From Verrucomicrobiota bacterium (lineage in GTDB: Bacteria; Verrucomicrobiota; Verrucomicrobiia; Limisphaerales; AAA164-E04): a stretch of DNA of 64,000 nucleotides. Positions 1 through 19,772 of this stretch are shown one piece after another. The notes under the pieces are model-generated. The model was not told the origin of the DNA. It did no database searches and saw only the letters and a program-made list of their open reading frames with translations. The stretch is from the NCBI GenBank assembly GCA_047947115.1, contig CP170459.1:5792001-5856000 (forward strand), given 5' to 3'. Numbering within the stretch: position 1 is the first letter of the stretch; each line of letters opens with the position of its first letter. Made by a program: the position numbers and the translations under genes.

Positions 1-79
1 TATATACATCTTGCGGTTGTGCCGAGGCGTTTAAACCACCGGCTAACATGAGTAACACCCATTTATTAATCAACTTCAT
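1..79 (-). CDS. Partial CDS (runs off the window start); secreted hypothetical protein, next gene of the secretin operon
   Basis: Manual translation from ATG at 79 gives MKLINKWVLLMLAGGLNASAQPQDVY, a Sec signal peptide with an A-S-A|Q site. It starts 27 bp after the stop of 107..1582. Not in the ORF track. Confidence 0.7.
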   Translation of the reverse strand, partial: MKLINKWVLLMLAGGLNASAQPQDVY

Positions 80-106
80 ATGCAAACAAAATTCCTTGAA
101 AGGAAA

Positions 107-1582
107 TTATCGAGAAAAAATCAGACTTTCCAATGCCTCTAGATCTGCCCCTTGTGGAAATACGACAGGATCATTGGTTGTCCCATCAAATGCTCCCCAC
201 ATTTGCCAGCTAACTGCTCCAAAAGTGCCATTTTCCAGATAGGCACCAGTAGCATCGACAACTCCATTCCAAAAAGGAGTAACCGTATTGAACGTTAACG
301 TAGCACCTCCAATAATCCCTGGTCCATCGTCATCACCAGTTGTTCCATCAAATGTGTCACTATTGATCCAGTTGACATTGCCAAGTGCCAATGGAGTGTA
401 AGTCACCGGATCCTGGGCGAAAGCTCCTTGTAAATCCCGAGCGTCAAATCTAAGATCTGGCTGGATCAAATTACGAATCAACCTCTGTGATCTCCGCACT
501 CCATTGGTAACGTAGTTGTCGGTAAAATTAACCGTCATTGGCGTAAAAAATTCACCCAGTAGGGAATCATAATTGGCTTCCACAAAATCCAGGACACCAA
601 TACCACCCCTAACAGCAGGGTTGATAAAAGTTGTCGTTCCGGCACCCGCACCACCAGCTGGTTGGGTTCCAGTTGTTACGGTAGCGACTGCATTGGTTGC
701 AATAACGGCTGAATCATAAGCCCCGCCCCCCGAACCACCGGGAAATCCGCTGTAGTCATAAATGCCCCCACCACCAACAGCACCACCACCGCCAGCAACG
801 ACACCGCCAGTGCCGGTCACATCAGGAATCGACGTTTCCATGTTGTAGTTTTTGGGATTGTAGAGATACTTTATGCCTCCGACATCATCACGGCTGAGGC
901 TGGAGATGTAGAGACCTGATAGCAGTTCAACAGGACCACTACGAGCGGCGGAAGCAGGTGTAGTTGTAGTAAAAAACCTCTCAGAAGGATCTACCGGGAA
1001 GACAGACGGACAACCTTGCCGATTATAAGTGTAAAGGGTACCGTTGACATACGGACTCATTAAATAAGTCACCGGATCAAAATTCCGGACAGTGAGGTAG
1101 TATTCAACAACAGCACCATTTTGAATCCACGCATTTCTTGGCGCATAAACGTAGGCTGTTGGATCTTCCAAACCTAGGGCACGCATGGTGCTTTGGATTG
1201 CAATTGATTTGACATCCATCAACCCTAAGGCGCGCGCACGGTGATTGATCCTCATACTCTGAGTTGGATAATCATCGATATTGAGTGCATCGGCACTGGG
1301 CAATTCATCAAGAACAGCTATGGCCTTTTGAATTTCCTCTACACCACGCGCACCAAAAAAACTCGCGAAGTCGGAAGTAACACCGTAAGTGATAATGGGA
1401 ACGTTAAACCGGTATTCCTCATCAATGTTCATCGGCCCGGTAAGACCACTATAACACGCATTGCTAGAGGGAATTGCCTCAGACATCCAAGGGGGTCGAG
1501 GACCTGCCAGCGAGAAGGCGTTTGTGTCACTGGTAGAAACCAGAAGAACAGTCAAAGCTACTAAATTGAAAAATCTTGTCAT
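107..1582 (-). CDS. Secreted hypothetical protein with a degenerate matrixin (M10 metzincin)-like N-terminal domain and a Gly/Thr-rich linker
   Basis: 491 aa ORF with a signal peptide. DVKSIAIQSTMRALGLED sits where DLxSVAxHExGHALGLxH is expected, and LSRDDVGGIKYLY resembles the matrixin LxxDDIxGIxxLY helix. Confidence 0.75.
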   Translation of the reverse strand: MTRFFNLVALTVLLVSTSDTNAFSLAGPRPPWMSEAIPSSNACYSGLTGPMNIDEEYRFNVPIITYGVTSDFASFFGARGVEEIQKAIAVLDELPSADALNIDDYPTQSMRINHRARALGLMDVKSIAIQSTMRALGLEDPTAYVYAPRNAWIQNGAVVEYYLTVRNFDPVTYLMSPYVNGTLYTYNRQGCPSVFPVDPSERFFTTTTPASAARSGPVELLSGLYISSLSRDDVGGIKYLYNPKNYNMETSIPDVTGTGGVVAGGGGAVGGGGIYDYSGFPGGSGGGAYDSAVIATNAVATVTTGTQPAGGAGAGTTTFINPAVRGGIGVLDFVEANYDSLLGEFFTPMTVNFTDNYVTNGVRRSQRLIRNLIQPDLRFDARDLQGAFAQDPVTYTPLALGNVNWINSDTFDGTTGDDDGPGIIGGATLTFNTVTPFWNGVVDATGAYLENGTFGAVSWQMWGAFDGTTNDPVVFPQGADLEALESLIFSR

Positions 1583-1590
1583 AGTTTGTA

Positions 1591-3507
1591 TTACTTCAGT
1601 CTGACAACTCGATAGATGTTCTGTGCTTCAGAAGCAGTTATGGACATTCGTTCACCGACGTCACCTGCCACCTTGGGACCTGTGACATTACCCCACTGAA
1701 GGAGATCTCCGGTACTTTGAATTTGATATACTGCACCGGGAATTGTATCCCAAGTCAGCCAATAATCGCCATCCAATTTCTCCATACCGACCTGGAGAAC
1801 ACTGCGAGGGTTCAAAGGATTGGTTCCAGCCAGCAACTCTTCCAAATTGGTGAGCCCATCGCCGTCACTATCCATTTGTGAGTCATCCCATTGTTTCGGG
1901 TTAAAACCCCAAAATGTTTGCTGAAAACTGTCGGGCAAGCCATCGTTGTTATTATCATCCCCCCACGTAGTTCCCTCACCGGGTGCGCTCAAGGTTGATT
2001 TAACTCCAGCGGTTGTCACATAGGAAATGCTGGCACTATGACGTGAGCCTGCGGGTAGATCAGTAATTTCAATGAAATTGGAGCTTGATATGATCGGGGA
2101 ACTCGAATCATCCAAAGTCACCTCATAATGTTTAACGTCAGCGTTTTCAACAGCTGGCCAAGTGATTCCAAGTTTATTGAAACCAAGCCCATATACAAAC
2201 GGGGTCGAAGGATTTTCCAACTGAACACCCGAGCTTGATTGGCTACCTTCAAATTTTAATGCTCGCAGGTCGAAACTCTGCACACCACCCAAATATGAAC
2301 TCCAAACGGCCACAAAATCACCGCTGTCAGTGGCGGCAAGCGAGGGCATGTATTGTAAGCTGGATTGGTCCTGATTTACAAATGCTGGAGAACCGGAAAC
2401 TGATCCATCGTCATTCAGCATGACACCATAAATATCTGAACCATTACCATCACCGCCAAAGCCGGTCCATGCAACCATCAGTTGATTGCCGCTACGAGCG
2501 ATTACTGGAACCGCTTGATCATTACCAGCATCTATGGATATTTGCTGAGATGAGTTTATGGATCCATCCGAACCAATAATAGATGCAAAAATTGCCCAGT
2601 TACCTGGCTCACCTACAAGAGAAACTTCCTGGAAGGCGGGATTCTGCAACCCTGAATAAACAAGCGCCAAATCGCCACTACCATTGAGAGCAATGGAAGG
2701 ATTTGCAGCCAAAGTTGTTGTTTCAGTGAGTTGAAATTCGTCCCCCTTGGGCTTGCCATTGTAATAAAAATGACGACCCCACACACTCACGGAAAAGTTT
2801 GAACCTAGACCACCAACAGGAGCCTCGGAAACCCAGACAACAAAAAAGCCTCCGTCCGCAGTCTTAGTAATGCCCGGACTTCTTTGGTTGAGGAAAGAGC
2901 TTTGTGGAACGGAAAATTCAGGACCAATTTTTGCGCCTTCCGTACTAATGATTTGTCCAAAAACACCTAACCGGTCTCCATCCTGGTCTTCACTTTCCCA
3001 TACAACAACAGCATTTCCATTGTCTAAAACAGTAATAGAAGGATTTTTTTGGTTGTGATCCGTATACGAATTGACATCAAAATCATCAGCCAAAAACGCC
3101 CCATCCTCCCCCATCAATCGGGCTCTGATATTACCGTCGCTTTCCCATATGAAAAAAGCCCCATTGTCACCAGTTAAGGCAACATCCGGATTTTGCTGGT
3201 CTCCATCTGTGGTCATATTAACCACAAAAGGTTCAAAAACGGGATGGAGTTCCTCGTTTAGCCGAACGGCACTGATGCCTTGACCATCACCGTCCATTGC
3301 ATTTCCCTCCCAGATCACGTATCCACCGTTGGGACCCAATGCGATCTTACTGTTGATCTGATCACCAGGTAGGGATGTTGCGATGGAAAATTCGCTCCCG
3401 ATGGGAGTGAGCTCAGCCATACAATTGCCTATGCAAACAGCACCAATAAGTGTGGTAAGCACGGGCTTTGTCAGACTGATGATGGTATTTCGATTCATTT
3501 CCAACAT
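1591..3507 (-). CDS. Secreted surface protein: 7 tandem repeats (probable beta-propeller), FN3-like domain, Ca-binding DxDxDG repeats, C-terminal beta domain
   Basis: Signal peptide; seven EFxVN..xQxNPxIA..GxFxVVWxS-type repeats; ITWPAV..YEV..ITDLPAGSRH FN3 pattern; DSDGDGLTNLEELLAGTNP; LTWDTIPGAVYQIQSTGDLLQW..IYRVVRLK. Confidence 0.8.
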   Translation of the reverse strand: MLEMNRNTIISLTKPVLTTLIGAVCIGNCMAELTPIGSEFSIATSLPGDQINSKIALGPNGGYVIWEGNAMDGDGQGISAVRLNEELHPVFEPFVVNMTTDGDQQNPDVALTGDNGAFFIWESDGNIRARLMGEDGAFLADDFDVNSYTDHNQKNPSITVLDNGNAVVVWESEDQDGDRLGVFGQIISTEGAKIGPEFSVPQSSFLNQRSPGITKTADGGFFVVWVSEAPVGGLGSNFSVSVWGRHFYYNGKPKGDEFQLTETTTLAANPSIALNGSGDLALVYSGLQNPAFQEVSLVGEPGNWAIFASIIGSDGSINSSQQISIDAGNDQAVPVIARSGNQLMVAWTGFGGDGNGSDIYGVMLNDDGSVSGSPAFVNQDQSSLQYMPSLAATDSGDFVAVWSSYLGGVQSFDLRALKFEGSQSSSGVQLENPSTPFVYGLGFNKLGITWPAVENADVKHYEVTLDDSSSPIISSSNFIEITDLPAGSRHSASISYVTTAGVKSTLSAPGEGTTWGDDNNNDGLPDSFQQTFWGFNPKQWDDSQMDSDGDGLTNLEELLAGTNPLNPRSVLQVGMEKLDGDYWLTWDTIPGAVYQIQSTGDLLQWGNVTGPKVAGDVGERMSITASEAQNIYRVVRLK

Positions 3508-3607
3508 GTTCTGTAATTAGATTTGCCTCTTTGACTCTATCTACGAGCAATTTCAATTCCAAATAGTAGTAAACGCTCGTTTAGTCGTTAAATGATTGGT
3601 TCAGCCC

Positions 3608-6598
<2,991 letters not shown>

Positions 6599-6647
6599 CA
6601 AACTAAAATTGAAATTTAAATGGGTTGTTCAATTGGATGGAGTTTCT

Positions 6648-7439
6648 TTATTGAACAATTCCTTTGGTTATGGTCGTGTGCTTAGATGTCTTTTCGTCAG
6701 ACAAAACAACTTCGGTTTCGGAAACAAATACAATTTCGTAATTGCGCTTATCAATAGAAATCTTGTCACCTTTCATGACGCTGGTGAATTTCCGGCGTCC
6801 GGCAGCATATTCCAGATCCGCTTTGTAACCTGCAATTTCTGTATATGGCTCTTGCGCATTGACAGTTATGGTTTTGTTTGATGCCAACAATTCAAGTACG
6901 AATGACTCAGGCCTGAGGGCATCCCCTTTCACTTCACGCAGAATAAAAATATCATTTTTATCACGTAAGCGAGCGTTGCGTGTCATCCGTCGACGCTCAC
7001 TTCGTTTTTCGGCAGCTTCTCTCGTAACAGAAAAACTATACTTGGGGTTTTCCACATCCAACTCCTTGTCGGCATTGAATTCGATAGTCAAGTAGAGTGG
7101 TTCAGTTGCCAATATCTCGACAGCGTTAGGTCCTTTGTGTCCGTAAAAACGATCCTTGACCAGTGTTCCGTTGTCTTCCAACCATCCGACCGGATTAAAC
7201 GTATTGTGGTCGGGACCAGCCAAACGGATGTGCTCCGGGTTCTTGGCACGATTCAACAAAGCGAGGCTTTCGCTGAGATCTTTCTGTTGAAATTCTTTTG
7301 GCTTTCTGGGACGTATACTCTCCTCCAATTCGGCGCGAATCGCGGACACCGAAAAGGGCAAGTATGCCGCAGCCCCAGCCAGACCGAGCAAGACCACGGC
7401 CAAGATTATCTTTTCGTAATGCTTTTTTAGAAAATCCAT
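6648..7439 (-). CDS. Amuc_1099-like pilus/secretion system protein with an N-terminal membrane anchor
   Basis: MDFLKKHYEKIILAVVLLGL N-terminus; lies between the Amuc_1100-like gene and the secretin, as in the Akkermansia cluster. Confidence 0.65.
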   Translation of the reverse strand: MDFLKKHYEKIILAVVLLGLAGAAAYLPFSVSAIRAELEESIRPRKPKEFQQKDLSESLALLNRAKNPEHIRLAGPDHNTFNPVGWLEDNGTLVKDRFYGHKGPNAVEILATEPLYLTIEFNADKELDVENPKYSFSVTREAAEKRSERRRMTRNARLRDKNDIFILREVKGDALRPESFVLELLASNKTITVNAQEPYTEIAGYKADLEYAAGRRKFTSVMKGDKISIDKRNYEIVFVSETEVVLSDEKTSKHTTITKGIVQ

Positions 7440-7461
7440 GTTAAATCAAATCAATCTTTGA

Positions 7462-8574
7462 TTAATATCCATACCCGCCAGATCCGCCATCATCTTCCTC
7501 GTCGGACGGTAGAGGCATCAATGAGTCGAGTTCTTCCTCGGGGAAAGTAGCTATGGCAACCAAACTCATATTGACGGTCAAGGGGCTTTCGTCAAGATCT
7601 TCGAGTTTGTTGTTGTCCTGCATCGGTTGTTGCCCTCCGCCAGCCATTCCTGCATAAGGATTTCCACCACCGTATCGGCTTGCTTGGCCTGCAGAAGATG
7701 GTTCAAGACCATACATGCGCTGCATCATGGAGTCTCCACCTATTCCGGATCCGTATGATGAACCACCCCCGTCTTGTTCAACGGCCATCCACTTGATTCG
7801 GAAATAGTGGTTCGAACGGTTGAATCCATCCATCACCCTGGCCAGTTCCGAGCTGAAGCATTGAAAACTGATCTGGAATGGAATCATGATGGCATTAATA
7901 TTAGGATCTTGGGTTGCCACATCCTCTATATAATTTTCACCCGCTGATGCGCTTGAAGAAGTGCTAGTGGATGTTACCCCCAAACCGATTCCCCCTGCAG
8001 CACTTGGACCGTCGTTGTCACTGACTGGCAAACGCTTTATAGCATTAATGCCGTGAATCTTAGCTTCAAACAACACGTTGCACAATTCCCGAATTTCGTA
8101 GAGCTGGAAGGTCAGTGGCCGAAGCGCTTCCGGCTCCAGATCAATTCTTGGGCGAATGTCATCAAATGAAAATCCATAACTGCCCTGATCCACAGATGGG
8201 AGACTGATGCCAGTATACCTGGCATCTCTCTGCATTTCAGAAAGTGTGTTTTCCAGTATTTCCTTGAATTCGGAAATTGAAAGTGACTCTGGGATTTCGA
8301 ATCCAGGAAAATAAGATTCCATCGGTCCAAGCACAACTTCCTGCACACGCGCCTGTTCCTTTTGGACCGCACCGATATTGTCAACCTTGTCCGTACCGGG
8401 ATGGGGATCACGGTTATAGAGCTGTTGAACCAAAGAGCGCTGTTGCTCAAGATCAGCCGTAACGGTTTTTTCCAAATCGATCTGCGACATCATGTACCAA
8501 ACGGCCACTCCCATTAGAATGAGAGCTGTGACTCCGCCGATCACCAATCCCACGTTTTGCTTAATCCAGTTCAT
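7462..8574 (-). CDS. Amuc_1100-like (PilO-like) protein
   Basis: MNWIKQN plus a TM helix and coiled coil, YGFSFDD motif, PFQISFQC..ELARVMDGF PilO-like core; its start overlaps the pilM stop (TAATG). Confidence 0.7.
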   Translation of the reverse strand: MNWIKQNVGLVIGGVTALILMGVAVWYMMSQIDLEKTVTADLEQQRSLVQQLYNRDPHPGTDKVDNIGAVQKEQARVQEVVLGPMESYFPGFEIPESLSISEFKEILENTLSEMQRDARYTGISLPSVDQGSYGFSFDDIRPRIDLEPEALRPLTFQLYEIRELCNVLFEAKIHGINAIKRLPVSDNDGPSAAGGIGLGVTSTSTSSSASAGENYIEDVATQDPNINAIMIPFQISFQCFSSELARVMDGFNRSNHYFRIKWMAVEQDGGGSSYGSGIGGDSMMQRMYGLEPSSAGQASRYGGGNPYAGMAGGGQQPMQDNNKLEDLDESPLTVNMSLVAIATFPEEELDSLMPLPSDEEDDGGSGGYGY

Positions 8575-10454
8575 TAGTCCACCAGTGAAATAGGTTCTTT
8601 CAGTTTCAAGGAAATTTCAAAATCGAAGGTTCCTTCCTCTTCGTCCACAGGAGCCAACTCACCGGTCAATTTCGTGTCGTCAGCATTGAAATAATTCGTT
8701 TGGGACTGCAGTTTTTGAAGCAAAGTAAATGCCAAATTGTTATTTGCATTGGGATTAATCGCTCGCCGATTCACTCCCCGACATGTTAGTGTCAGTTTGG
8801 AGATCAAATCTTCATTCTCCTCGTCTGATGTGTCCCCTTCTTCATCATCCCAATCATCTTCACCCCCACTGTCGCCCATGGGTATCAAGCCATACCGCTT
8901 CATCATTTCGATATCCATCATGGGAGTCTGCTCCTCTTCATCATCCCAATCATCAAACGTTTCGGCTGCACCAGTCAGATCAATTCCCGCACTGTCAGGT
9001 AAGAGAGACTCGATCCAAAGCCCGGAATCAAGCGAAAACCGACGCTGTGCTTCATTTTCAGCTTCGACCAGAGAACCGCGTATAACTTTAAGGAGGTCAC
9101 TCCAAAGGTACCGCTGGTTGAGAAGTTTTCCGTAGATTTCCGCTTTGCTCAACTGGGTTTCAAGAGCGGATTCTTCTGGACGAAGTTGTTGTTCCAAACT
9201 TTGCAGTGGAGCCGCGATGGTCCGAAGTTCGTTCAAGACGCGTTGTTTCTCGCCGTGAACCTGTGAGAAAAAGAGACCGATAGAAGCAACCACCAGCACC
9301 AACCCGAACACTGCAGAGATCAAGTAAGGCTTTTTGCGATTGAACTCCTGACGTTGAAGGGAGGATTTGGGCATCAAGTTCAGCTCCACAGGGCACTGAA
9401 CCACGTTTCGAAGCCCGAGCCCGACAACCTCCCCAAATGAGTGGGCTACCCGAGCCAATTCTTCCAAGTTGATGGAAGGATCAATCTCGACAGCCCGGAA
9501 AGGATTGAAGTATTCCACTTCAACGTTTAATTTTTCTGCAAAAAATTGGGCTGTATATGGCATGATGGAAGCCCCACCCGCCAGGAACAGTCGATCAGGC
9601 GCGGAACCACCCTGTTGACTGCGATAAAACTGCATCGTCTGGTTCACCTGGATATGCAGGCGAGTCATCACCTGACGAGCAATTTTGGAAATTTGTGCTT
9701 GCTGAGGATTGTCAGGATCTTCATAAGCCCCCCCCAAACTGACGAAGCCCTGTTCAATTTTGAATTTTTCCGCCTCAGGAAAGCGCATCTTTGCTTCGGT
9801 GGAGAATTCCTGAGTAATGGAATTGGCACCAATGTTTATACTGCGCGCAAATACTTTGCCCTTTTCGAAAAACAACAGGTTGCTGGATTTAGCCCCGATA
9901 TCCAACAGCATCGTGCAACCTTCCAAATCCCCGTAATTGTATCGGAAAGCATTGCAGATGGCGGCCTGCGAAACGTCCACGAGGTTAACCACCATTCCGT
10001 GGTTTTCGGCGGCCTTGAAAACTTTATCCACCAATTCAGTCTTGATGGCTACCAGAAGCACTTCCAGTTCACCACCTGGGGATGTCCCCATGATCTGGTA
10101 GTCCCAAACTACCTCATCCAGAGGGAAGGGCACATTCTGCTGCGCCTCGTATTGAATGATCTGGGTGACCTTGGACGAGTCAACGGGTGGAAGTTTGACG
10201 AACTTGGAGAACACCTGATAACCAGGAGCACAGACGTTGATTTGTTTCGTGGAAAATCCCTGTTCATTTACCAGAGATTGCAAGGCCTTTTTGACAACAC
10301 CTTCGCGAACGGCATCCTGAGCACCAGGCAATCCCAGAGCGTGCTGGCCGAATTTCTTCAATACCAGGCTGCCAGAATCGGTCTGATCAAACTCAGCGAC
10401 TTTGACGCAACCAGCGCCTAGATCGATGCTCAAAAACGATTTTGTCTTTAACAT
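8574..10454 (-). CDS. pilM: Type IV pilus assembly protein PilM fused to a PilN-like C-terminal region (Amuc_1101-like)
   Basis: Actin-like motifs SIDLGAGCVK, LDIGAKSS, LAGGAS and VVGLGLR, then the PilN-type ELNLMP motif, a TM helix and a coiled coil. Start moved to ATG 10454 (MLKTK). Confidence 0.9.
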   Translation of the reverse strand: MLKTKSFLSIDLGAGCVKVAEFDQTDSGSLVLKKFGQHALGLPGAQDAVREGVVKKALQSLVNEQGFSTKQINVCAPGYQVFSKFVKLPPVDSSKVTQIIQYEAQQNVPFPLDEVVWDYQIMGTSPGGELEVLLVAIKTELVDKVFKAAENHGMVVNLVDVSQAAICNAFRYNYGDLEGCTMLLDIGAKSSNLLFFEKGKVFARSINIGANSITQEFSTEAKMRFPEAEKFKIEQGFVSLGGAYEDPDNPQQAQISKIARQVMTRLHIQVNQTMQFYRSQQGGSAPDRLFLAGGASIMPYTAQFFAEKLNVEVEYFNPFRAVEIDPSINLEELARVAHSFGEVVGLGLRNVVQCPVELNLMPKSSLQRQEFNRKKPYLISAVFGLVLVVASIGLFFSQVHGEKQRVLNELRTIAAPLQSLEQQLRPEESALETQLSKAEIYGKLLNQRYLWSDLLKVIRGSLVEAENEAQRRFSLDSGLWIESLLPDSAGIDLTGAAETFDDWDDEEEQTPMMDIEMMKRYGLIPMGDSGGEDDWDDEEGDTSDEENEDLISKLTLTCRGVNRRAINPNANNNLAFTLLQKLQSQTNYFNADDTKLTGELAPVDEEEGTFDFEISLKLKEPISLVD

Positions 10455-10540
10455 GTGTTTTACTTTCCTGTCTATCAGGGCAACAAAAATCCTGTGAGAG
10501 CACATGCCCCCAAGAACTCACATTGCGAAGGTCGGGGAGG

Positions 10541-10569
10541 TGAATATGGGAAATTACCCATCGGGTCAA
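10541..10569 (-). promoter_or_regulatory. Candidate promoter of the pilM operon with a 16-bp near-palindrome in the spacer
   Basis: Minus strand TTGACC-N17-TATTCA (weak -10), with ATGGGTAATTTCCCAT at 10546-10561. Confidence 0.35.
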
Positions 10570-10704
10570 CAGAAAACTGACCCCTTACTCAACAAACACC
10601 GCATTTCGCAACTTCATCCCATTTTTTGATGCCCTGTTTGGTTTCCAATGCGAGGTCTTTGAGTTTCTTTGACCGCTTCCACTTTCCACCTACTCAAAAA
10701 TAAC

Positions 10705-10729
10705 TGAAGGCGTGTTTCGCACTCCTTCA
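10705..10729 (-). terminator. Possible intrinsic terminator after the priming glycosyltransferase
   Basis: Minus strand TGAAGGAGTG-CGAAA-CACGCCTTCA (one mismatch) followed by GTTATTTTT. Confidence 0.45.
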
Positions 10730-10750
10730 AGGCACCTTTACGGGGTTCTT

Positions 10751-12169
10751 TCATTTGGCTCCCTCACCGGCAATCACAACGGGTATCGTTCTCAATAGAA
10801 TCTTGATATCCAGCCATAAGGACCAATTGTCGATGTATTCGAGGTCCAGTCTGACCCATTCTTTGAAATCAGTCACCTTATTTCTTCCACTGATTTGCCA
10901 AAGACAGGTTAAACCTGGTTTCACACTTAAGCGCCGACGATGTGCCAGTTCGTCGAATTGCATGGTTTCGTCCACCGGAAGCGGCCTTGGCCCCACCAAA
11001 CTCATCTCCCCCATCAGCACGTTGAACAATTGGGGCAATTCATCAAAGCTGCGCTTGCGAAGAAATTTACCAATGGGTGTGACACGCGGATCATTCGTTA
11101 CCTTGAATACCGGCCCCGCCATCTCGTTGTAGGCCTGCAATTCATCTTTTCGTTGTTCGGCATCGGTGACCATGGTGCGGAATTTGAACATCGTGAACGG
11201 GCGCCCGTTCAAACCGCTCCGCTGCTGCCTGAAAAACACCGGGCCAGGAGACGTTAACCTGATGGCAAGAGTGCAAAATATAAGAATGGGACTGAAGAGC
11301 AGGATTGCGAACAGAGCCCCTGTAAAATCGATGGCCATTTTACCCACGGCTTGCCATGAAAAATCCGGAGTGGATCGGAAGATCACCACCGGACGGCCGT
11401 ATAATTCATCCAGGGTGGTGCGCGAAATTTGTGTATTGAAAAAATTGGCAAACATCCAAACTTCTACCCCTTCCAGCTCACAGGCTTGAATCACTTTTTC
11501 TATGCGACCGAAATAAGTATGTTTTGTAGCCAGCAAGACACCGTTTGCAGAATGCGTGTGCAAGACTTCAACAAAGGTGGAAAGATCGGATTTGTTCACA
11601 TCCAACTCCGCCACAATTTCTATGTCACGCGCTTCCTCCAGGTGAAAATCCTCCCGAACCTGCTTCACGTCCTCCGGCGTGCCCACCACGATGATGCGAC
11701 GCCTTAACCGCGCCTGCCCGAGAGCATGCAGCAAATAGCGCTGGAGAATTTCCTCCTTAGCAAACACCAGCAGAAAACTGAAGATACCAAAAAGGATAAA
11801 CACAGACCGAGCCAAGTGCTCCTTGGCGAGGAAGGCTGCCAGCATCAGTCCCAGGGTGATAAACGTGCAGACCTTGAACAACTGCCACGCCGTCACCTTT
11901 CTGGAAGCAAGCAGCGGCCGACTGTAAAAGCCTTGAGTCTGAAGCAAAACAAGCGAAAGGGGCACAGTCAGGACCAGATATGGCAAGAATTCATCGAAGG
12001 ATTCAATTTCTTTCGTCCCACCGAAGATAGCCAGCATTCGAAGCCCATATTCACCAACTAACGATTCATTGGTTCGAAGCCAATAAGCAGACCACAGACC
12101 CAGCGCAAAAAGAGCGGCATCCAGGAGACGCTGGATATGGTTTCGAATCTGCTGTTGACGTCTAAGCAT
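10751..12169 (-). CDS. Polyprenyl glycosylphosphotransferase (priming sugar transferase, WcaJ/WbaP family)
   Basis: N-terminal TM helices, a CoA-binding-like middle, and Bac_transf motifs FKFRTM, DPRVT, DELPQLFNVLMGEMSLVGPRP and DLEYIDNWSLWLD. Confidence 0.95.
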   Translation of the reverse strand: MLRRQQQIRNHIQRLLDAALFALGLWSAYWLRTNESLVGEYGLRMLAIFGGTKEIESFDEFLPYLVLTVPLSLVLLQTQGFYSRPLLASRKVTAWQLFKVCTFITLGLMLAAFLAKEHLARSVFILFGIFSFLLVFAKEEILQRYLLHALGQARLRRRIIVVGTPEDVKQVREDFHLEEARDIEIVAELDVNKSDLSTFVEVLHTHSANGVLLATKHTYFGRIEKVIQACELEGVEVWMFANFFNTQISRTTLDELYGRPVVIFRSTPDFSWQAVGKMAIDFTGALFAILLFSPILIFCTLAIRLTSPGPVFFRQQRSGLNGRPFTMFKFRTMVTDAEQRKDELQAYNEMAGPVFKVTNDPRVTPIGKFLRKRSFDELPQLFNVLMGEMSLVGPRPLPVDETMQFDELAHRRRLSVKPGLTCLWQISGRNKVTDFKEWVRLDLEYIDNWSLWLDIKILLRTIPVVIAGEGAK

Positions 12170-12240
12170 AGGACTTCAAATTGAGTATTCGGGCCTGAAT
12201 TCAGGAGTAAGAGAAAACGGATTAAACTTCAAATGCAAGG

Positions 12241-12969
12241 CTATTTGGCGTTTTCAGTCCTGGCAACAACATGGCTTTCCGGAAGTGTTTTTTGGAATAC
12301 CGGCACGGCATTCTGGATAAACCACTCCATGTGCTTGAATCCCGCCTCTTCCTGCCCAGGAATGACGATCGCAGAAAAGGTGATATAGGCCCATCGCTGC
12401 ATCTTACCTGTGGTAAAAAGATCCTTACCCATCAACCACATCCTTTCATAATGCTGATTGGTCACATGCTTGTCGTCTACGAACCAGTAGTAAAGCAACC
12501 CGCTATATTCATTGCCTTCTATGGTTTTGGTAGATTTCAACTGCATGACTGGCAATTTGAATGGCGCCGGCCTGGCGATTTCAATTACCTTGGCGTTGGT
12601 TTGTTGAATATGATACCCGGCACCGGTCAGGCAATACTGAGGCTTGTGAATACTGGTCCTGTCCAACCCCATTAACACAACCATCACATCGATAAAGAAC
12701 CCGTTCGGATGCTTGTATCGACGCTTGGTGATCGTCGTGTCCGGAGGCAAAGCATCTTTTTCAACATCACTTACCGGCAAATCTTCTCCCGTATAGTCCA
12801 GCACCCAATCCGGGAGTAACACCGGAGGTTTATCACTACCTGAATGCTCCAGCAACCTCACCCCTGGTTCTCCCATGGTCTGGTGAGCTTTCCAGTAATT
12901 TAGAAACCCGCCCGTAGAGCCAATGAGCATCAGCAGACTCACAAGCATGAAGACATTTTTCTTAATCAT
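12241..12969 (-). CDS. Exosortase-associated EpsI-family protein
   Basis: N-terminal TM helix, DRTSIHKPQYCLTGAGY (HxPxxC) motif and YYWF; ATGA overlap with the exosortase. Confidence 0.85.
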   Translation of the reverse strand: MIKKNVFMLVSLLMLIGSTGGFLNYWKAHQTMGEPGVRLLEHSGSDKPPVLLPDWVLDYTGEDLPVSDVEKDALPPDTTITKRRYKHPNGFFIDVMVVLMGLDRTSIHKPQYCLTGAGYHIQQTNAKVIEIARPAPFKLPVMQLKSTKTIEGNEYSGLLYYWFVDDKHVTNQHYERMWLMGKDLFTTGKMQRWAYITFSAIVIPGQEEAGFKHMEWFIQNAVPVFQKTLPESHVVARTENAK

Positions 12970-13946
12970 GCATCCACCTCCTCTGGCTGGATGTCATTCC
13001 CATTCTCTGAAACAGGTTCTTTGAGCCAAATATCCATGATAAACACTCCCAAAATGGCGACCAAGAAAGTCACAAACCCCAATTTCTGCTCCCACAATTT
13101 ACCAGCTTCCTGGCCATACTGGTTTGCTATAATGATCACTAAAATAAGGCGAAGCGTGTTACCTGCAATGGCCAAAGGAATAGAGGACAACACAAGCAGG
13201 ACTCGTTTCCAACTGGTTTTGTAAGCAATAAATCCAAACGCCAAAGTGAGAGGAACCAGGGTCATCAGACTGTTGATACCACTGCAAGCAGGAGCGACGT
13301 CGTAACGAAATGTTCCGGCGAAGTTCGTGATGAATGTCCCCTGGCGCATGACATCAATTTGAAGAGCATGATCGGAAAACCCTACCGCCAGAGCGCTGAC
13401 AAACACGCGCAATGGAAACGTCAGAGGCTGAGCCAATGAGCCTATCGGCACACAGAACAGAAATAACACGTATGGAAAAATGACCACTTTCAACCAGGCC
13501 TTCCCCCAGCAATACCCCATCAAGCCATATAACCCGACGAACATCCCCAGAACCGAAAGGCGCGTTTGTTGAGCCATAAATCCGACAATGTGGAACAGAA
13601 GCCCCACTGCCACCAGCATTAGCCCGGGGTTCCACGCTTCGTAATTGAATTTCAAGAATTCCTTGCGCTTCCAGATCAACAGAGCAATGACCGCAAACGG
13701 AATCAAGTTTCCATGGCCGTCCTCGGACAGCTTTGCATTGTATGAATTATACATCCAATGGTAAACCGACGTGGTATCGACATATCCAAAGGTGGAATTC
13801 CCCAGCCATTGAAATAGAACGATCCAAGCCACAAAACCGACGATAAATACGGTTTTATGGGGTAGCTTCTGCCACAACTCACCCAGATCCCTGAGGATCT
13901 CCAAAAATATATTCTTACCCGAATCGCTGGTCTTTGTGTGTTCCAT
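12966..13946 (-). CDS. Exosortase/archaeosortase-family membrane transpeptidase
   Basis: Multi-TM protein with HGNLIP, FPYVLFLFCVP, catalytic VAPACSG and GNTLR motifs; adjacent to EpsI. Confidence 0.9.
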   Translation of the reverse strand: MEHTKTSDSGKNIFLEILRDLGELWQKLPHKTVFIVGFVAWIVLFQWLGNSTFGYVDTTSVYHWMYNSYNAKLSEDGHGNLIPFAVIALLIWKRKEFLKFNYEAWNPGLMLVAVGLLFHIVGFMAQQTRLSVLGMFVGLYGLMGYCWGKAWLKVVIFPYVLFLFCVPIGSLAQPLTFPLRVFVSALAVGFSDHALQIDVMRQGTFITNFAGTFRYDVAPACSGINSLMTLVPLTLAFGFIAYKTSWKRVLLVLSSIPLAIAGNTLRLILVIIIANQYGQEAGKLWEQKLGFVTFLVAILGVFIMDIWLKEPVSENGNDIQPEEVDA

Positions 13947-14039
13947 GAAAAAACTGATCTAGTATGCCTTTGACTACTTTTATGCCATTTTGCTCATACA
14001 AAGACAGGATATTAATAAAAACACCCGAGATAACACAAT

Positions 14040-14813
14040 CTAATTACCCTCGGATGCACTCCAGGCCTTGCCGTTGATCATCCCTATTAAAAGCAAATAC
14101 AAAAACATGGAGTTGTAATATACATACCGCCCCAGCAAACGCCTCGGTTCGCTGCAAAGGCGATAGAGCCATCCAAGACCATTGCGCTGCATCCACAACG
14201 GCGCATCCGGTTTCGTTCCCGCATTGACATCAAAAGCAAATCCGACTGCCATAACGGCTCCACGTTTGATGGCGTCCTTATGTTGATGAACCCAAGCCTG
14301 CTGTTTCGGAGTCCCCAAGCCCACCCAGACGAAGTCGGGCGACAGTTCGTTGATCTCATCCACAATCCGCCCGGAATCTCCTTCTTTGAAATAGCCGTGA
14401 TGCTTGCCAATGATCCTTACCTTTGGTTGCCATTTGCGAAAGGAAGCCTCCAGCTTTTCAAGGCACTCTTCAGATCCCCCCAGAAAGTAATGGGTAAAAG
14501 GCTCCGGGGAATGAGTGACACAGTGGCGCATAAAAGTCGGACCATACACCCGGTCAGAAAGACCTGCTTTTTGAAGATTCAAACACCAGATCAAGGGCAT
14601 GCCGTCCGGAATGAAATAATCCACCTTGGATGTCGCTTCCCAAAATTGTCCGTCCAGTTTGCGCATGGTAACAATCTGGGTATTGGTAAAATCAACCGAG
14701 AACACGGATGAACTTTTCACTTTGGACTGACAGAAATCGGTCAGTTCCTCGTAAGTAGTAGCTCGGACCGGCGTGCCAAGGATGTGAAAACGTTTCAGGT
14801 CTTTCGGGATCAT
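14040..14813 (-). CDS. WecB/TagA/CpsF-family glycosyltransferase
   Basis: PDGMPL, RVYGP, VWVGLGTPKQ and APLWMQRNGLGWLYRL..EPRRL motifs. Start moved to ATG 14813 (ATGA overlap with the epimerase stop). Confidence 0.93.
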   Translation of the reverse strand: MIPKDLKRFHILGTPVRATTYEELTDFCQSKVKSSSVFSVDFTNTQIVTMRKLDGQFWEATSKVDYFIPDGMPLIWCLNLQKAGLSDRVYGPTFMRHCVTHSPEPFTHYFLGGSEECLEKLEASFRKWQPKVRIIGKHHGYFKEGDSGRIVDEINELSPDFVWVGLGTPKQQAWVHQHKDAIKRGAVMAVGFAFDVNAGTKPDAPLWMQRNGLGWLYRLCSEPRRLLGRYVYYNSMFLYLLLIGMINGKAWSASEGN

Positions 14814-15850
14814 GAGGACACTTGATCGATCATTCGCTCCAAAATCCGGTCCAGCGACCATTCCAATTTCCATTTGGGAAAATGAGATTGGAACTTACGC
14901 AGATCGGACATGTAACAAATGTGATCACCCTTGCGATTTTCATCCACATACCGCGTTTCGACGCCGCGACCAAGCAGTTGTTCAATTTTTTCCACGCACT
15001 CCAGAATCGAAGCGCTGTTACCGCGCCCTCCTCCCAAGTTATAGACTTCCCCGGGCCTCGGGTTGGCAGCAAAGGCCAAAAAGGCGTTAATAACATCTTC
15101 GCTGTGAATCTGATCACGCACCTGTTTTCCTTTGTATCCGAGAATGGAATACGTTTCGCCCGCTTTGGCGACTTTGACCAGGTAGGAAAGGAAACCATGC
15201 AATTGAACCCCAGAATGGTGTTCCCCCGTCAGGCATCCTCCACGAAACACTCCGACATTCATGCCGAAATAGCGGCCATACTCCTGAGCCATCACATCCG
15301 CAGCCGTTTTGCTCGCTCCAAACAGGCTGTGCATGGTTCGATCAATGCGACAAGATTCACTGACTCCGTGAAAATCCGATTCGTTTGCATAATCCCACCG
15401 TTTGGAAAGTTCCTTGAGCGGAATCTCGTTGGGAGCATCCCCGTAAACCTTGTTGGTCGACATGAATACGAACACCGACTCAGGCTGGGTTTGACGTGTC
15501 GCTTCCAGAAGATTGAGCGTTCCGACAGCATTGACATCGAAATCGATGAATGGAATGTCCTTCGCCTTGTCATGAGAAGGCTGAGCTGCACAGTGAATGA
15601 TCAGGTCAAACCGCTCCGACTTAAACAAATCCAACACCTTTTCCCGATCACGAATGTCCAGAGAATGATGGGTAAAGGATCGAGTCGTGTTTCGCAAACG
15701 TTCAAGCACCCATGTCGTGTCACCGCCCGGGCCAAAGAATTCACGCCGCATGTTATTGTCGATCCCAACAATCACATGCCCGGATCGATCCAACAGCCTG
15801 ACAGCCTCGGATCCGATCAATCCACTTGAACCAGTAACCAGCACTTTCAT
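14810..15850 (-). CDS. NAD-dependent epimerase/dehydratase (CDP-paratose 2-epimerase-like extended SDR)
   Basis: TGSSGLIG, HCAAQPSHD, STNKVYGD, FGASK and GKQVRD motifs. Confidence 0.92.
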   Translation of the reverse strand: MKVLVTGSSGLIGSEAVRLLDRSGHVIVGIDNNMRREFFGPGGDTTWVLERLRNTTRSFTHHSLDIRDREKVLDLFKSERFDLIIHCAAQPSHDKAKDIPFIDFDVNAVGTLNLLEATRQTQPESVFVFMSTNKVYGDAPNEIPLKELSKRWDYANESDFHGVSESCRIDRTMHSLFGASKTAADVMAQEYGRYFGMNVGVFRGGCLTGEHHSGVQLHGFLSYLVKVAKAGETYSILGYKGKQVRDQIHSEDVINAFLAFAANPRPGEVYNLGGGRGNSASILECVEKIEQLLGRGVETRYVDENRKGDHICYMSDLRKFQSHFPKWKLEWSLDRILERMIDQVSS

Positions 15851-16013
15851 CCGGGCAAAACGATAAGGGCAGAAAGCAATAGTAAAAGGAAATTCCTCAG
15901 TGTGAAGAAAGGTTTATCCATCAGGAATTCCACTATGATTGTCAACCGGACTTGAAACCAGAGATGTTCCCCAAGGAAAGGACGGAGAAAATCTGGAAGA
16001 AACCTTGATAAAA

Positions 16014-16088
<75 letters not shown>

Positions 16089-16236
16089 GTGCCTTGATGT
16101 TTGCCGACCAGGCAAACGCAGGAAGAGATGTAGTAATTCAAACAGCTCAAGGTGACAAGTGATTATTTTGAAGAACTTCAAGTAAGGGCATCGATCTTCG
16201 CCTTTTCTTTTCCTTACCAATGCCTATACTGCCCCC

Positions 16237-18411
16237 GTGACACGATCCCATTTGATCCAATCTTTGGTACCGGTCTTGAAATGGTCGCTCGCCGTGATGC
16301 TTTTTCCCACCGGCACTGGGGCGCTCCGTTCACTGGGAGCAACCAGCGAGTGGCGCCATTTCGGCAGTGACCCGGCCAATTCACAATACTCCCCCCTCAA
16401 GCAAATCCATCGCGGAAATGTGGGACAACTGACCAAAGCCTGGGAATATGCATCGGAAAACGTAGAGACAAAAACAAGATCCCAGATCCAATGCAATCCC
16501 CTGATTGCAGATGGAATTCTTTACGGCACCTCCCCCACCCTCAAAGTGTTCGCGCTCGATGCGGCCTCCGGACAGGAGAAATGGATGTTCAACCCATTTC
16601 AGAACACCAATCCGATCGGGGTCAATCGAGGAGTGGTTTACTGGAGCCACCAGGAACAATCCCGCATCCTGTTCACCGCCAGTCACTGGCTTTATGCGCT
16701 TGATGCAATTACAGGAAAACCAATCCCTGCTTTCGGCCGGGAAGGTCGAGTGGACTTGCGACAAGGTTTGGGGAGAGATGCAGATAAACTTTTTATCCTC
16801 TCCAATACACCGGGTTCTGTTTACAAAAATGTATTGATCCTTGGAACAAGGGTTAACGAAGGCCCCGGCCCATCGGCACCGGGATATATCCGTGCTTATG
16901 ATGTCGAAACAGGCGAACTGAAATGGGTGTTTCACACCATCCCCCATCCGGGTGAAGAAGGGCATGACACTTGGCCGCAAGACGCATGGAAAACCGCTGG
17001 AGGCGCCAATGCCTGGGGCGGGCTGGCTGTTGATGAATCAAGAGGCTGGGTCTTTTGCCCGACGGGATCGCCTGCGTTTGATTTCTGGGGAGGCAACCGA
17101 GTCGGAAAAAATTTATACGGAAACAGCCTTTTGGTGATTGATGCCAAAACGGGAAAGAAAGTCTGGCATTACCAAATTGTACACCATGATCTGTGGGACA
17201 GAGATCTCCCCGCCTCTCCCAACCTGTTGGAATTGACGATCAACCATGAAAAAATACCCGCCGTGGCCCAAATCACGAAATCCGGCCATGTCTTTTTGTT
17301 TCACCGAGAAACCGGAAAACCCATCTTTCCAATCGAAGAACACCCATTCCCCCCCTCCGACCTGATGGACGAACAAGCCTGGCCTACCCAACCCATCCCT
17401 ACTTCACCGCCCCCCTTTGCCAGGCAAGCATTCAAACCAAAAGACGTGTCCACACTTTCCCCCGAAACACACGATCAAATGCTCGAGAAACTCCTTTCAG
17501 TAAGAAGCGGCGGTCAATTTGTGCCCCCCAGCACCATTGGCACGGTGATTTTCCCTGGTTTTGACGGGGGTGCAGAATGGGGAGGTGCCGCATGGGATCC
17601 TCAAAACGAATTTCTTTATGTCAACGCCAACGAAATGCCCTGGATTCTGACCATGGTTGATATTCGCAATAAATCACAATCCACGAACCAATCCGATGGA
17701 GCATTTTTGTATCAAAGACTATGCGCCGTCTGCCACGGTATAGACCGCATAGGAGATCCTCAAAAAACATACCCTCCCCTGCTAAACATCGGACAAAAAA
17801 TGAGCGCACAACAGATTATCGACCAATTGAGCCAGGGAAAAGGACTGATGCCTGCTTTTGGATTCCTCACATTGCCTGAAAAAACTGCGATCGCTCTATT
17901 TCTTCTGGGTAACCCAGAAGAAACCAAACAATCCCCCAAGGAAACAACTGTGTCAGAAAATCCAGCTAACAACGGCAAGGAGCCTTATTCGCACACCGGA
18001 TACAATCGATTCCTGGATTCGAATGGATATCCAGCCATCAAACCACCATGGGGCACCCTTAACGCCATCGACCTGAAGGCGGGACGTATCGCCTGGCAAG
18101 TGACACTAGGTGAGTTTGATGACTTACAAGCAAGAGGATTATCCCCAACAGGCACCGAGAATTACGGTGGCCCCGCCGTCACCGCAGGCGGACTGGTATT
18201 CATTGGAGCATCCAAAGACGAAAAATTCAGAGCTTTCGACAAATCTACAGGAGAAATGCTCTGGGAAACAAAACTGCCGGCAGGTGGATACGCCACTCCG
18301 TCCGTGTATGAAGCAAACGGAAGACAATTCGTCGTCATCGCATGCGGTGGCGGAAAAATGAATACAAAATCAGGCGTATCCTATGTTGCCTTTGCGCTGC
18401 CAAAACCATGA
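16237..18411 (+). CDS. PQQ-dependent (glucose/quinate-type) dehydrogenase with an inserted cytochrome c domain
   Basis: PQQ propeller motifs ([33 protein letters not shown]) and a CAVCH heme motif with distal GLMPAF. Confidence 0.9.
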
Positions 18412-19142
18412 CAAATTCCCTCCCCACTCCAAAGAAGCACATGGATCTGTTCAAAAAAGCTTTCACGCTGATCGAACTGCTGGTGGTCATCGCCATCATC
18501 GCCATACTGGCAGGCATGCTCCTTCCGGCGTTGAGCCAGGCCAAAAAAAAAGCCAACCGGATTGTCTGTGTCTCCAACATGCGCCAAATAGACCTTGGAT
18601 TCCGAATGTATCGATCGGATCATGATGAACGTTTTCCGGACAGACGTGACCTGAAAAAAATCTTACCTGGCGGCTACCGCCCATGGACTGCTTGGCCTCC
18701 ATCCGATCCCCGCAGCGGTTGGGCAGGATTCATCCTGTCAAACCATGTCGGATCCGCCAACTTATGGATGTGCCCAAGCATTAAAAAATCTCCATTGGGT
18801 AAATCCATTTCATCTGTACAACCGATGGGATTCGAAACAAACGCACCATTGGCCGGCTATTGGATGTGGAGATTTGACCGTGCCGATGAGGAAATACCTT
18901 TGGATAATTTCTGGGGTAAAACAGAAAATCAAGTGATCCAACATTTGCGAAAAGAAGCAAATCCGTTCATCGGAATTCCAAATGGCCCTTCCGATGTGGA
19001 ATTGATGGTGGATGTGTACTATCCTTCAACCATTGAAAGCATCGAGGAAACCATCCGAGGCCGAGCGGTGCACCCGATGGGCAGAAACCAACTCATGTTG
19101 GATGGTCATGTTCAATTCAAAAAAGACGCAAGGACTCGATAA
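18408..19142 (+). CDS. Prepilin-type N-terminal cleavage/methylation protein with a C-terminal H-X9-DG motif
   Basis: [35 protein letters not shown] and [14 protein letters not shown]. Start at 18408 gives an ATGA overlap with the dehydrogenase stop. Confidence 0.9.
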
Positions 19143-19174
19143 AAAAACCCGTTTCTCATCAGCTGAGAAACGGG
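19141..19174 (-). terminator. Intrinsic terminator of the alpha operon
   Basis: CCCGTTTCTCA / TGAGAAACGGG 11-bp stem followed by a T7 tract on the minus strand, just past rplQ. Confidence 0.85.
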
Positions 19175-19202
19175 CGTTGAAAAATATATTGCTGGGGACA
19201 GA

Positions 19203-19751
19203 TCAGGCGTCTTTCTTCTCCTCACCTTCGGAGCTACCCTTGTCAGCCGCATCAGCATCATCTTCGGCAGCGGGGCCGTCCTCGGTAGCTTCAGCCTTGG
19301 CCTCATGAGCAGCCGGGGCATCCTCGGTTTCTGCTTTGGTAGGAGCGACCTCTGCTTTTGCAGCGGCATCACCTGAGGGAGATACAGCGGCATCACCTTC
19401 TTCAACAAATTCAATGATGGCCATCTGGGCAGCATCGCCTCGACGATCCATCAATTTGATGATACGGGTGTAACCACCCGGGCGATCCTGATGTTGAGGT
19501 GCAATTTCACTGAAAAGAATTTGTACCGCATCTTCCTGGTGCAATCTGGAAACAGCCAAACGACGGTGATGGATAGTTCCTTTCTTACCGAGGGTCACCA
19601 TCTTTTCAACAACCGGACGCACGGCTTTCGCTTTGGCAAGAGTTGTTGTTACGCGCTTGTGCTTGATCAAACTGCATACCATATTCGCCAGCATCGCGTT
19701 CCGATGAGCGCCTTTGCGGCCGAGTTTGGCATTTCGTTTTAAATGTCTCAT
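19203..19751 (-). CDS. rplQ: 50S ribosomal protein L17 with an acidic Ala/Glu-rich C-terminal tail
   Basis: MRHLKRNAKLGR, TTLAKAK and RPGGYTRIIK motifs. Confidence 0.98.
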   Translation of the reverse strand: MRHLKRNAKLGRKGAHRNAMLANMVCSLIKHKRVTTTLAKAKAVRPVVEKMVTLGKKGTIHHRRLAVSRLHQEDAVQILFSEIAPQHQDRPGGYTRIIKLMDRRGDAAQMAIIEFVEEGDAAVSPSGDAAAKAEVAPTKAETEDAPAAHEAKAEATEDGPAAEDDADAADKGSSEGEEKKDA

Positions 19752-19772
19752 GTAAACAGCTTGTTAAATTTT

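Follow-up and report, generated by a model that had tools for sequence, protein, structure and literature searches.

Akkermansia needs the MUL2 locus for mucin foraging, and one of its products, Amuc_1100, acts on the host. What the MUL2 machine moves or builds is an unsettled question. A recent preprint describes the MUL2 locus, Amuc_1098-1102, as a pilus-like cluster of Akkermansia muciniphila and likens Amuc_1100 to PilO/PilN (bioRxiv 10.64898/2025.12.30.696933). In the outer membrane of this species, Amuc_1098 has been reported to be the most abundant protein (PMC4960237). Wilkie et al. 2026 reported that MUL2 synteny is conserved in aquatic Akkermansiaceae and other Verrucomicrobiales (PMC13174399). 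We analysed a cluster of this type in a stretch of 64,000 nucleotides (hereafter the window, G000:C1:5792001-5856000) from the genome of a Verrucomicrobiota bacterium, which is assembled as one contig of 6.08 Mb. By sequence comparison we have shown that three of the four core genes of the cluster are homologous to the Akkermansia MUL2 genes Amuc_1098, Amuc_1100 and Amuc_1101, and the remaining one holds the position of Amuc_1099. Behind the secretin gene follow four more genes, whose products we call D1 to D4, and the position of D1-D2-D3 in this place is conserved across one order. We propose, with a probability of roughly 0.45, that the core is an envelope-spanning, type IV pilus-like MUL2 machine and that D1-D4, whose genes are likely co-transcribed with it, use its secretin to cross the outer membrane or to decorate it as a surface protease/adhesin complex.

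The first-pass annotation of this DNA had presented the cluster as a candidate surface-export system. The core has already been described as MUL2 and as conserved beyond Akkermansia (PMC13174399). The only flanking genes named in the text surveyed there are coaE, rho and those that encode a secretion channel protein, tRNA ligases and a 3-dehydroquinate dehydratase. We found the block of four genes undescribed in full-text literature searches, in the text of PMC13174399 and in the available passages of its supplement, a survey of text and not of figures. The features of the cluster are as follows.

8574..10454, minus strand: PilM-PilN-type fusion (PilM-N), counterpart of Amuc_1101 / MUL2B; reading frame open to 10505, 643 aa
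7462..8574, minus strand: Amuc_1100-family protein, 370 aa, with an N-terminal transmembrane anchor, PilO/PilN-like
6648..7439, minus strand: inner-membrane-anchored periplasmic protein, 263 aa, in the position of Amuc_1099, with a putative PilP/GspC-like role
3608..6601, minus strand: TPR-secretin, 997 aa, counterpart of Amuc_1098 / PilQ, with poly-glycine linkers
1591..3507, minus strand: D1, secreted protein with a predicted propeller, 638 aa; TSP3, Fn3-like region, C-terminal beta-sandwich (CTD)
107..1582, minus strand: D2, secreted protein, metzincin-like in its fold model and without HExxH, 491 aa
ATG at 79, 1..79 in the window, continuing to G000:C1:5789254, minus strand: D3, predicted beta-helix protein, 943 aa
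G000:C1:5785517-5789257, outside the window, minus strand: D4, S8 subtilase (Peptidase_S8), 1246 aa

The core genes compared with Amuc_1098-1101

The listing of open reading frames (ORFs) in the window gives seven closely spaced genes on the minus strand, namely the four core genes, then D1, D2 and the start of D3. The Met at 10454, internal to the ORF 8574-10505, is the likely start of PilM-N, and the family alignment begins there. The stop of PilM-N and the start of the Amuc_1100-like gene share 1 bp. It had been claimed that the four upstream genes are counterparts of Amuc_1101, 1100, 1099 and 1098, and the NCBIfam matches given below bear this out for all but Amuc_1099. The three named loci from Akkermansia metagenome-assembled genomes (MAGs) that we used for comparison (L038-L040) were found via a published Amuc_1098 primer, and their proteins pass the Amuc models above the cut-offs. 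Signal peptides, transmembrane helices and periplasmic tails were judged by eye.

PilM-N matches PF11104 PilM_2 above its cut-off (E 1.9e-39, residues 27-367) and passes TIGR01175 pilM with 157.5 bits at a cut-off of 133. It also matches NF045709 Amuc_1101_fam over model positions 1-461 of 608 (E 5e-147), with 491 bits, below the cut-off of 650. Its tblastn matches to the Akkermansia loci have E-values from 2.8e-75 to 5.5e-72. A transmembrane helix lies at about residues 393-417 and is followed by a periplasmic tail, and on this ground we infer the PilN half of the fusion. The families PilN, PilO and PilP gave no Pfam or NCBIfam match in the core proteins at E up to 0.01. Of the earlier domain calls, PilM and the secretin hold, the PilN half is a probable assignment, and the TPR match is weak (TPR_11 E 0.0053; PilW TPR E 7e-4).

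The earlier reading had also assigned the two middle genes to Amuc_1100 and Amuc_1099, and here the result was divided. The 370-aa protein matches NF038287 Amuc_1100_fam (E 6.6e-14, 52 bits, below the cut-off of 180). In hhalign, a profile built from 20 of its homologues could be aligned to Akkermansia Amuc_1100 across 298 columns (probability 95.5%, E 1.4e-8), and the family profile matches the Amuc_1100 crystal structures PDB 6LAD/6KNY (E 5e-5). A single-sequence phmmer search of PDB gave no match for this protein; only the family profile reached Amuc_1100. The 263-aa protein matches NF042425 (E 0.0035) with its N-terminal 54 residues only, and hhalign with Akkermansia Amuc_1099 gave 29 columns (20%), again the N-terminal anchor only. 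The Amuc_1099 profile thus does not match beyond this anchor. ESM Atlas gave leads only, T2SSC at 0.77 and a verrucomicrobial cluster with TSP3 at TM 0.45. The single PDB match of this protein was at chance level and was dismissed. The protein was seen by tblastn in 24 of 35 relatives' loci, and from its place and topology we take it for a positional counterpart of Amuc_1099.

The secretin matches PF00263 above its cut-off (E 2.1e-29) and NF042912 Amuc_1098_fam below it (E 5e-93, 313 bits, cut-off 750). Its tblastn match to the Akkermansia gene covers query residues 56-977. The GspD, MshL and PilQ (TIGR02515) models also match below their cut-offs, TIGR02517 GspD with E 4.4e-42 and 144 bits at a cut-off of 351. 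Residues 451-600 are 52-54% glycine. The poly-glycine linkers lie at about 4800-5300 of the window, in the codons for residues ~450-610. The contigs of several relatives end within the secretin gene, often in its glycine-rich part.

Compared with MUL2, the order of the genes is the same: the PilM-like fusion, the Amuc_1100-family protein, the anchored protein and the TPR-secretin, with coaE downstream. The locus differs in that the Amuc_1099 counterpart is shorter and matches in its anchor only, and that all four core proteins score below the equivalog cut-offs of the NCBIfam Amuc families, so that none of them is an equivalog. It also differs in the ~10 kb with four extra genes between the secretin gene and coaE. 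The pilMNOPQ loci of Pseudomonas and Myxococcus share with it an actin-like PilM, bitopic proteins of the PilN/PilO type, a small periplasmic adaptor and a secretin, and their motor genes lie elsewhere. Here, in contrast, PilM and PilN are fused, the TPR is fused to the secretin, the adaptor is anchored by a transmembrane segment and not recognisable as PilP, and genes of exoproteins are appended.

In Pfam and NCBIfam scans of its proteins, the cluster has no ATPase, platform or pilin family, just as had been read from the sequence at first. Type IVa pilus operons of the pilMNOPQ type normally lack these genes, and their absence here is therefore expected. The first-pass annotation had also suggested that PilB/PilC-type genes be sought elsewhere in the genome, and there we found 10 T2SSE ATPase matches and at least 5 platform genes. 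The whole-genome search gave no T2SSF platform match within 700 kb of the cluster, and the nearest T2SSE ATPase match is ~57 kb away. The genome has eight secretin loci, and the cluster's own secretin is the only one within 57 kb. At G000:C1:494873-500359 lie three T2SSE-type ATPase genes and a platform gene, with no secretin match nearby; the platform gene has one in-frame TAG within the match. This set is a candidate motor for the secretin cluster.

The four genes behind the secretin gene

The gaps 3' of the secretin gene are 100, 8 and 27 bp by the ORF coordinates, as was noted earlier. Extra signal-peptide genes do stand behind the secretin, as the first-pass annotation had it. Their count is four and not three, because D4 lies beyond the window. 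The region of D3 and D4 that runs beyond it spans G000:C1:5785517-5792085, and the two genes overlap by 4 bp. After D4 come a terminator-like hairpin and then coaE.

The order sample consisted of 41 genomes from the window's genus, family and order. D2 was found in 36 of them, and PilM-N also in 36 (E up to 1e-40). In 23 genomes (24 loci) one contig carries both D2 and PilM-N, separated by 7-11 kb and with order and orientation unchanged. It turned out that D1-D2-D3 stand behind the secretin in all contiguous assemblies of the order (23 genomes). As for the other 13 genomes with PilM-N, a contig end falls inside the cluster in 8, four are alike by coordinates alone, and one differs. In this genome (G029, 2.6 Mb) the secretin gene is followed by an exonuclease gene and a D1-like gene at the contig end, and two D2-like genes lie elsewhere. 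We also fetched 35 loci around D2 or PilM-N matches. Most of them were selected by D2, so that the presence of D2 there is uninformative and its position is informative. The secretin and D1 were found together in 29 of these loci, D1 and D2 in 28, and D3 in 26. The synteny of the downstream genes with the secretin, which had been proposed as a check, thus holds throughout the window's order. A D4-like gene was present in 19 of the 35 loci and its protease domain in 14, thirteen of which come from the window's family and G028.

In 11 of the 35 loci a co-directional gene of a 5'-3' exonuclease (FEN/Pol I N-terminal type, ~310 aa) lies between the secretin gene and D1. These loci (L016, L017, L019-L021, L023-L025, L027, L028 and L034) belong to other families of the order. 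One genome, G023, has two diverged full copies (L023 and L024) of the core, the exonuclease gene and D1-D3. We considered this double copy as evidence of a functional unit and dropped it, since both copies carry the exonuclease gene and, at 4% contamination, two strains are equally likely.

All four D proteins have ordinary Sec signal peptides and not prepilin leaders, as judged by eye. D1 has about seven sequence repeats (also by eye), which form a beta-propeller in the complex model described below, then an Fn3-like stretch and a TSP3_bac calcium-binding repeat (E 2.9e-7). D2 matches no Pfam or NCBIfam family. It consists of a metzincin-like N-terminal domain, a Gly-rich linker and a C-terminal beta domain, and its model has a pLDDT of 72.5 and a pTM of 0.77. 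The best fold matches of this model are the catalytic domains of MMP, astacin and serralysin proteases, and these matches are weak (Foldseek E 0.9; VIA Z 4.1, rmsd 4.2, 116 residues aligned); the ESM Atlas lead is Peptidase_M10 at 0.77. D2 has no HExxH, and no His or Glu is conserved at the motif position in 24 aligned homologues. D2 is thus not a member of the metzincins and at most a degenerate relative. D3 is predicted to be a beta-helix. Its model (pLDDT 87) is all-beta, with weak matches to the beta-helices of autotransporters, two-partner-secretion proteins and tailspikes (best E 7e-3), and the protein carries a calcium-type DxDGDG motif. Fold searches with D2 and D3 gave no convincing relative, and 'metzincin-like' and 'beta-helix' are used here as fold descriptions only. 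D4 matches PF00082 Peptidase_S8 (E 2.7e-54). Its catalytic triad is intact by sequence motif, with DTG at 205, HGT at 260 and GTSFAAP at 434 all present.

We co-folded residues 32-520 of D1 with residues 23-491 of D2. The binding score was 0.89, and the best of three controls scored 0.00. Among solved complexes 116 of 157 score this high, and among mismatched pairs 2 of 215; these counts hold here only roughly, as own alignments were used. Three runs agree in at least 74% of the contacts, and the pLDDT of the partners is at least 71. In the model a conserved loop of D2 (residues 183-200) lies on the face of the D1 propeller. Thus, D1 and D2 are predicted to form a heterodimer.

Such a complex, kept directly behind the secretin gene, could also mean that D1-D4 are not cargo at all. 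They may be accessory factors of the periplasm or outer membrane, in which the S8 protease matures the secretin or fibre subunits, and D1-D2 and D3 form a ring or cap. Protease partners occur in other secretion systems, and the top NCBIfam match of D4 is the mycosin model of type VII secretion (E 3.6e-44), below its cut-off. The distribution of the genes does not agree with this, however. PilM-N is present in 174 of 201 genomes of the phylum, whereas none of 200 gave a match to the D3 body, and the protease domain occurs in only 14 of the 35 loci of the order. In addition, a propeller, a beta-helix, TSP3 and a terminal beta-sandwich are typical of surface and extracellular proteins. For these reasons we consider an accessory role unlikely.

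Probable gain of the block and RNA contigs across its junctions

To describe the situation outside the order, we used an even set of 200 genomes of the phylum (201 including the window's own genome). PilM-N gave one match per genome in 173 of the 200. The D3 body was found in none of the 200; in 30 genomes there are matches confined to the last 100 residues of D3. In the three Akkermansia MAGs the gene order is Amuc_1102-1101-1100-1099-1098, coaE and rho follow the secretin directly, and D2 and D3 are not present anywhere in these MAGs. Twelve loci from the phylum sample carry the same core. The secretin gene adjoins coaE in three of them (L087, L092 and L098). In L096 and L097, from genomes of other classes, the exonuclease gene and one other gene stand between it and coaE. 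Another of the twelve, from G121, has the same ORF lengths as the Akkermansia loci and a near-identical Amuc_1100 N-terminus; its class label is 'same class' and not 'same order'. In L089, L093 and L095, also outside the order, two tandem secretin genes stand behind the PilM-N, Amuc_1100-like and Amuc_1099-like genes. From the gene orders, the simplest reading is a gain of the D block by the ancestor of the order, in front of coaE and behind the secretin gene (or the exonuclease gene). Our first reading had been a loss in Akkermansia, and it was replaced because the outgroup loci favour a gain in the window's order. The exonuclease gene between the secretin and D1, and coaE behind the secretin in distant lineages, also show that this neighbourhood keeps unrelated genes together.

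The Amuc_1102 (MUL2A) family has the opposite distribution. It was found in 0 of the 41 genomes of the order, and queries of the window's genome with the Akkermansia protein and with NF042424 gave no match. As a positive control, 5 of 5 genomes tested outside the order carry it as the gene immediately before PilM-N. In the window a sugar transferase gene takes this place. It is tempting to suppose that the D proteins replace the lost Amuc_1102 as an extracellular tip or fibre-like adhesin complex, an analogue of PilY1/PilC. D2 is present in 36 of the 41 genomes without Amuc_1102, and the propeller-like repeats of D1 with its calcium-binding motif resemble PilY1, which has a propeller and a calcium-binding motif. 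But Pfam and NCBIfam scans of D1-D4 gave neither PilY1 nor pilin matches, and their Sec signal peptides are not prepilin leaders. Moreover, the reciprocal pattern is a single evolutionary event common to the relatives. We therefore regard this substitution as very improbable.

Upstream of PilM-N, at 10751-13946 of the window on the minus strand and co-directional with the cluster, are the genes of the priming sugar transferase (Bac_transf), an EpsI-like DUF3485 protein and an exosortase. The sugar transferase gene adjoins PilM-N in 12 of the 35 relatives' loci. Inspection of the C-termini of D1-D4 by eye found no PEP-CTERM-like tail. Further away, at 18342-19142 on the plus strand, the window encodes a protein with a prepilin-type N-terminus.

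No terminator-like site was found in the gaps of 100, 8 and 27 bp. A hairpin with a 12-bp stem and a T run, L002:11494-11467(-), stands between the D4 stop and coaE. Scans for promoters and terminators inside the cluster gave counts close to those expected by chance (12 with 15.5 expected, and 16 with 14.9 expected), and only the hairpin after D4 was used. At least half of the sampled words of positions 1-10000 of the window occur in 20 RNA-library runs from 16 studies. These libraries come from freshwater, aquatic, estuary, marine and marsh samples of 2016-2024, and the strain in them is 98-99% identical. This may mean that the organism is very widespread or that the libraries have a common origin.

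We compared the contigs of four runs from four studies (X1-X4). Contigs 98-99% alike cover 30 of 30 bins of positions 1-10800. The junction of the secretin and D1 is bridged by contigs in 4 of 4 runs, that of D1 and D2 also in 4 of 4, and that of D2 and D3 in 3 of 4. The contigs break only at 5031-5241, which is the poly-glycine repeat of the secretin gene. The depth of the cluster contigs was 12-20 in X1 and X2, 3-9 in X3 and 114-154 in X4. As such libraries can contain DNA, the same runs were also compared with positions 14000-26000. At 14000-19200 the contigs of X1-X3 are no longer than 354 bases, at a depth of 0-10. From 19200 on, the rplQ/rpoA stretch again has long contigs (depth 23-32 in X1 and X2, 9-12 in X3), and X4 has the same contrast. 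The coverage of the cluster and rpoA differs in this way from that of 14000-19200, which speaks for RNA rather than contaminating DNA and for good expression of the cluster. D1-D4 are likely co-transcribed with the core. One contig of X4 spans the secretin gene through the sugar transferase, the DUF3485 protein and the exosortase. At 18462-18505, inside the gene with the prepilin-type N-terminus, the RNA contigs have many loose ends, as expected of a large paralogue family.

These data bear on the most serious alternative, namely that D1-D4 are an independent operon of surface proteins or exoenzymes. In the ancestor of the order it would have been inserted in front of coaE, behind the secretin gene or the exonuclease gene, and it would have stayed there by profiting from read-through of a strongly expressed operon. 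The D proteins would then exit via another secretin system or another route, and the MUL2 core would neither need nor handle them. The secretin gene adjoins coaE without the block in Akkermansia and in L087 and L098, the last two from other classes, and the exonuclease gene can separate the secretin and D1, both of which agree with an insertion. With eight secretin loci and 10 T2SSE ATPase matches the genome has other routes to offer, and the C-terminal domain of the D proteins is found on ~50 unrelated ORFs and in other orders. Yet in the contiguous assemblies of the order (23 genomes, 24 loci) the block is never away from the secretin. Its genes are co-oriented, with small gaps and no internal terminator-like site, and the RNA-library contigs bridge the junctions. 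An independent operon is thus possible but, in our view, rather doubtful.

The C-terminal domain and possible routes of export

D1, D3 and D4 end in a beta-sandwich of ~70 residues, the CTD; D2 has none. Examples of its copies are located as follows; further ones are in L041-L080.

Window 1594-1818, L002:15257-15481 and L002:11520-11744, all minus strand: CTD

The alignment of the CTD has a conserved W, G-x-x-Y-x-[VL]-[EQ], a second W and a final [FY][FY]R. A hidden Markov model of the CTD matches the extreme C-terminus of D1 with E 1.2e-16. It finds 50 ORFs in the genome at E <0.01, and in ~40 of them the match lies 0-8 residues from the stop. Twenty of the CTD ORFs were searched against Pfam, of which 14 had matches and 6 had none. 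The families include multihaem cytochromes, CotH/LTD, S8 and C11 peptidases, beta-helix, PKD, Calx-beta, Ig and glycan-related proteins. Among 38 CTD sequences, no Por_Secre_tail or other curated sorting-domain family of Pfam or NCBIfam was matched at E up to 1. The best matches to recur, in 6 of 38 sequences, covered parts of F5/8 type C and DUF3999, and the domain as a whole has no curated family in Pfam or NCBIfam. In the Akkermansia MAGs the CTD has weak matches only (E 2e-4 or worse), and in G029 none. One genome of the sample, G026 (82% complete), has 15 CTD matches, and D2 and D3 were not found there. A strict link between the CTD and the D block was rejected on account of this genome and of the CTD-like ends in 30 of the 200 genomes outside the order. 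By its sequence features, the CTD is a candidate sorting or anchoring domain.

In this respect the locus can be compared with type IX secretion, in which cargo carries a C-terminal domain and an attachment complex includes the peptidase PorU and the propeller protein PorZ. Here as well, a beta-sandwich of ~70 residues ends many unrelated exoproteins, including a co-encoded peptidase (D4) and a propeller protein (D1). The differences are that there is no Por_Secre_tail match and that genomes in which searches for D2 and D3 gave nothing also have the CTD, whose cleavage or attachment would be putative. It might be imagined that the MUL2 machine gave up Amuc_1102 in this order and became a dedicated export and display gate for D1-D4, with the CTD, on three of these proteins and on ~40 other exoproteins, as an undescribed sorting or anchoring tag and D4 and D1 in the roles of PorU and PorZ, which would amount to a CTD-dependent pathway of secretion and attachment on the basis of a type IV pilus-like secretin. 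We think that this is improbable.

Type II secretion offers another comparison for the export itself. There are type II secretion loci with a substrate gene beside the secretin genes, and Dichelobacter nodosus secretes subtilisin-like proteases in a type IV pilus-dependent manner. Common to these systems and our locus is a secretin machine whose presumed cargo consists of folded exoproteins that depend on Sec, an S8 subtilase among them. In contrast to type II secretion, no GspC, L, M, E or F genes adjoin the cluster, the GspD match is below its cut-off, and the export through this secretin is putative.

In the reading that we prefer, the core would span the envelope as a MUL2 machine, and its motor (ATPase, platform and pilins) would be encoded elsewhere, as in pilMNOPQ operons. 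D1-D4 would enter the periplasm by the Sec pathway and exit through the cluster's secretin, driven by a pilus or pseudopilus motor. The CTD of D1, D3 and D4 may hold these proteins at the cell surface, and the D module would take the place of the pilin-like Amuc_1102 in this order. Several results weigh against this proposal. The protease domain of D4 is present in only 14 of the 35 loci, mostly from the window's own family, and a housekeeping exonuclease gene separates the secretin and D1 in 11 of the 35. The CTD occurs without D2 and D3 in G026 and in 30 of the 200 genomes outside the order. In the Akkermansia MAGs, which have no D2 or D3, and in the 200 genomes, none of which gave the D3 body, the core does without the D block. 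Any of the eight secretin loci, or another route, could export D1-D4, and no result ties these proteins physically or functionally to the cluster's secretin. Contigs of RNA libraries cannot prove a single transcript, and the depth per contig cannot rank genes. The first-pass annotation had made the downstream genes dedicated accessory, tip or cargo subunits; these roles are putative, and an exonuclease gene lies between the secretin and D1 in 11 of the 35 loci.

Most Verrucomicrobiota have the PilM-N core in a single copy. An order without the proposed pilin that carries a module of secreted proteins directly behind the secretin is a natural experiment, and the D block offers a direct test of what MUL2-type secretins handle. 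The CTD is a separate lead to how these bacteria sort their many dozens of surface enzymes, among them cytochromes, peptidases and proteins that act on glycans. If the D proteins depend on the secretin, MUL2-type machines would be systems of protein export and display, and not only builders of pili.

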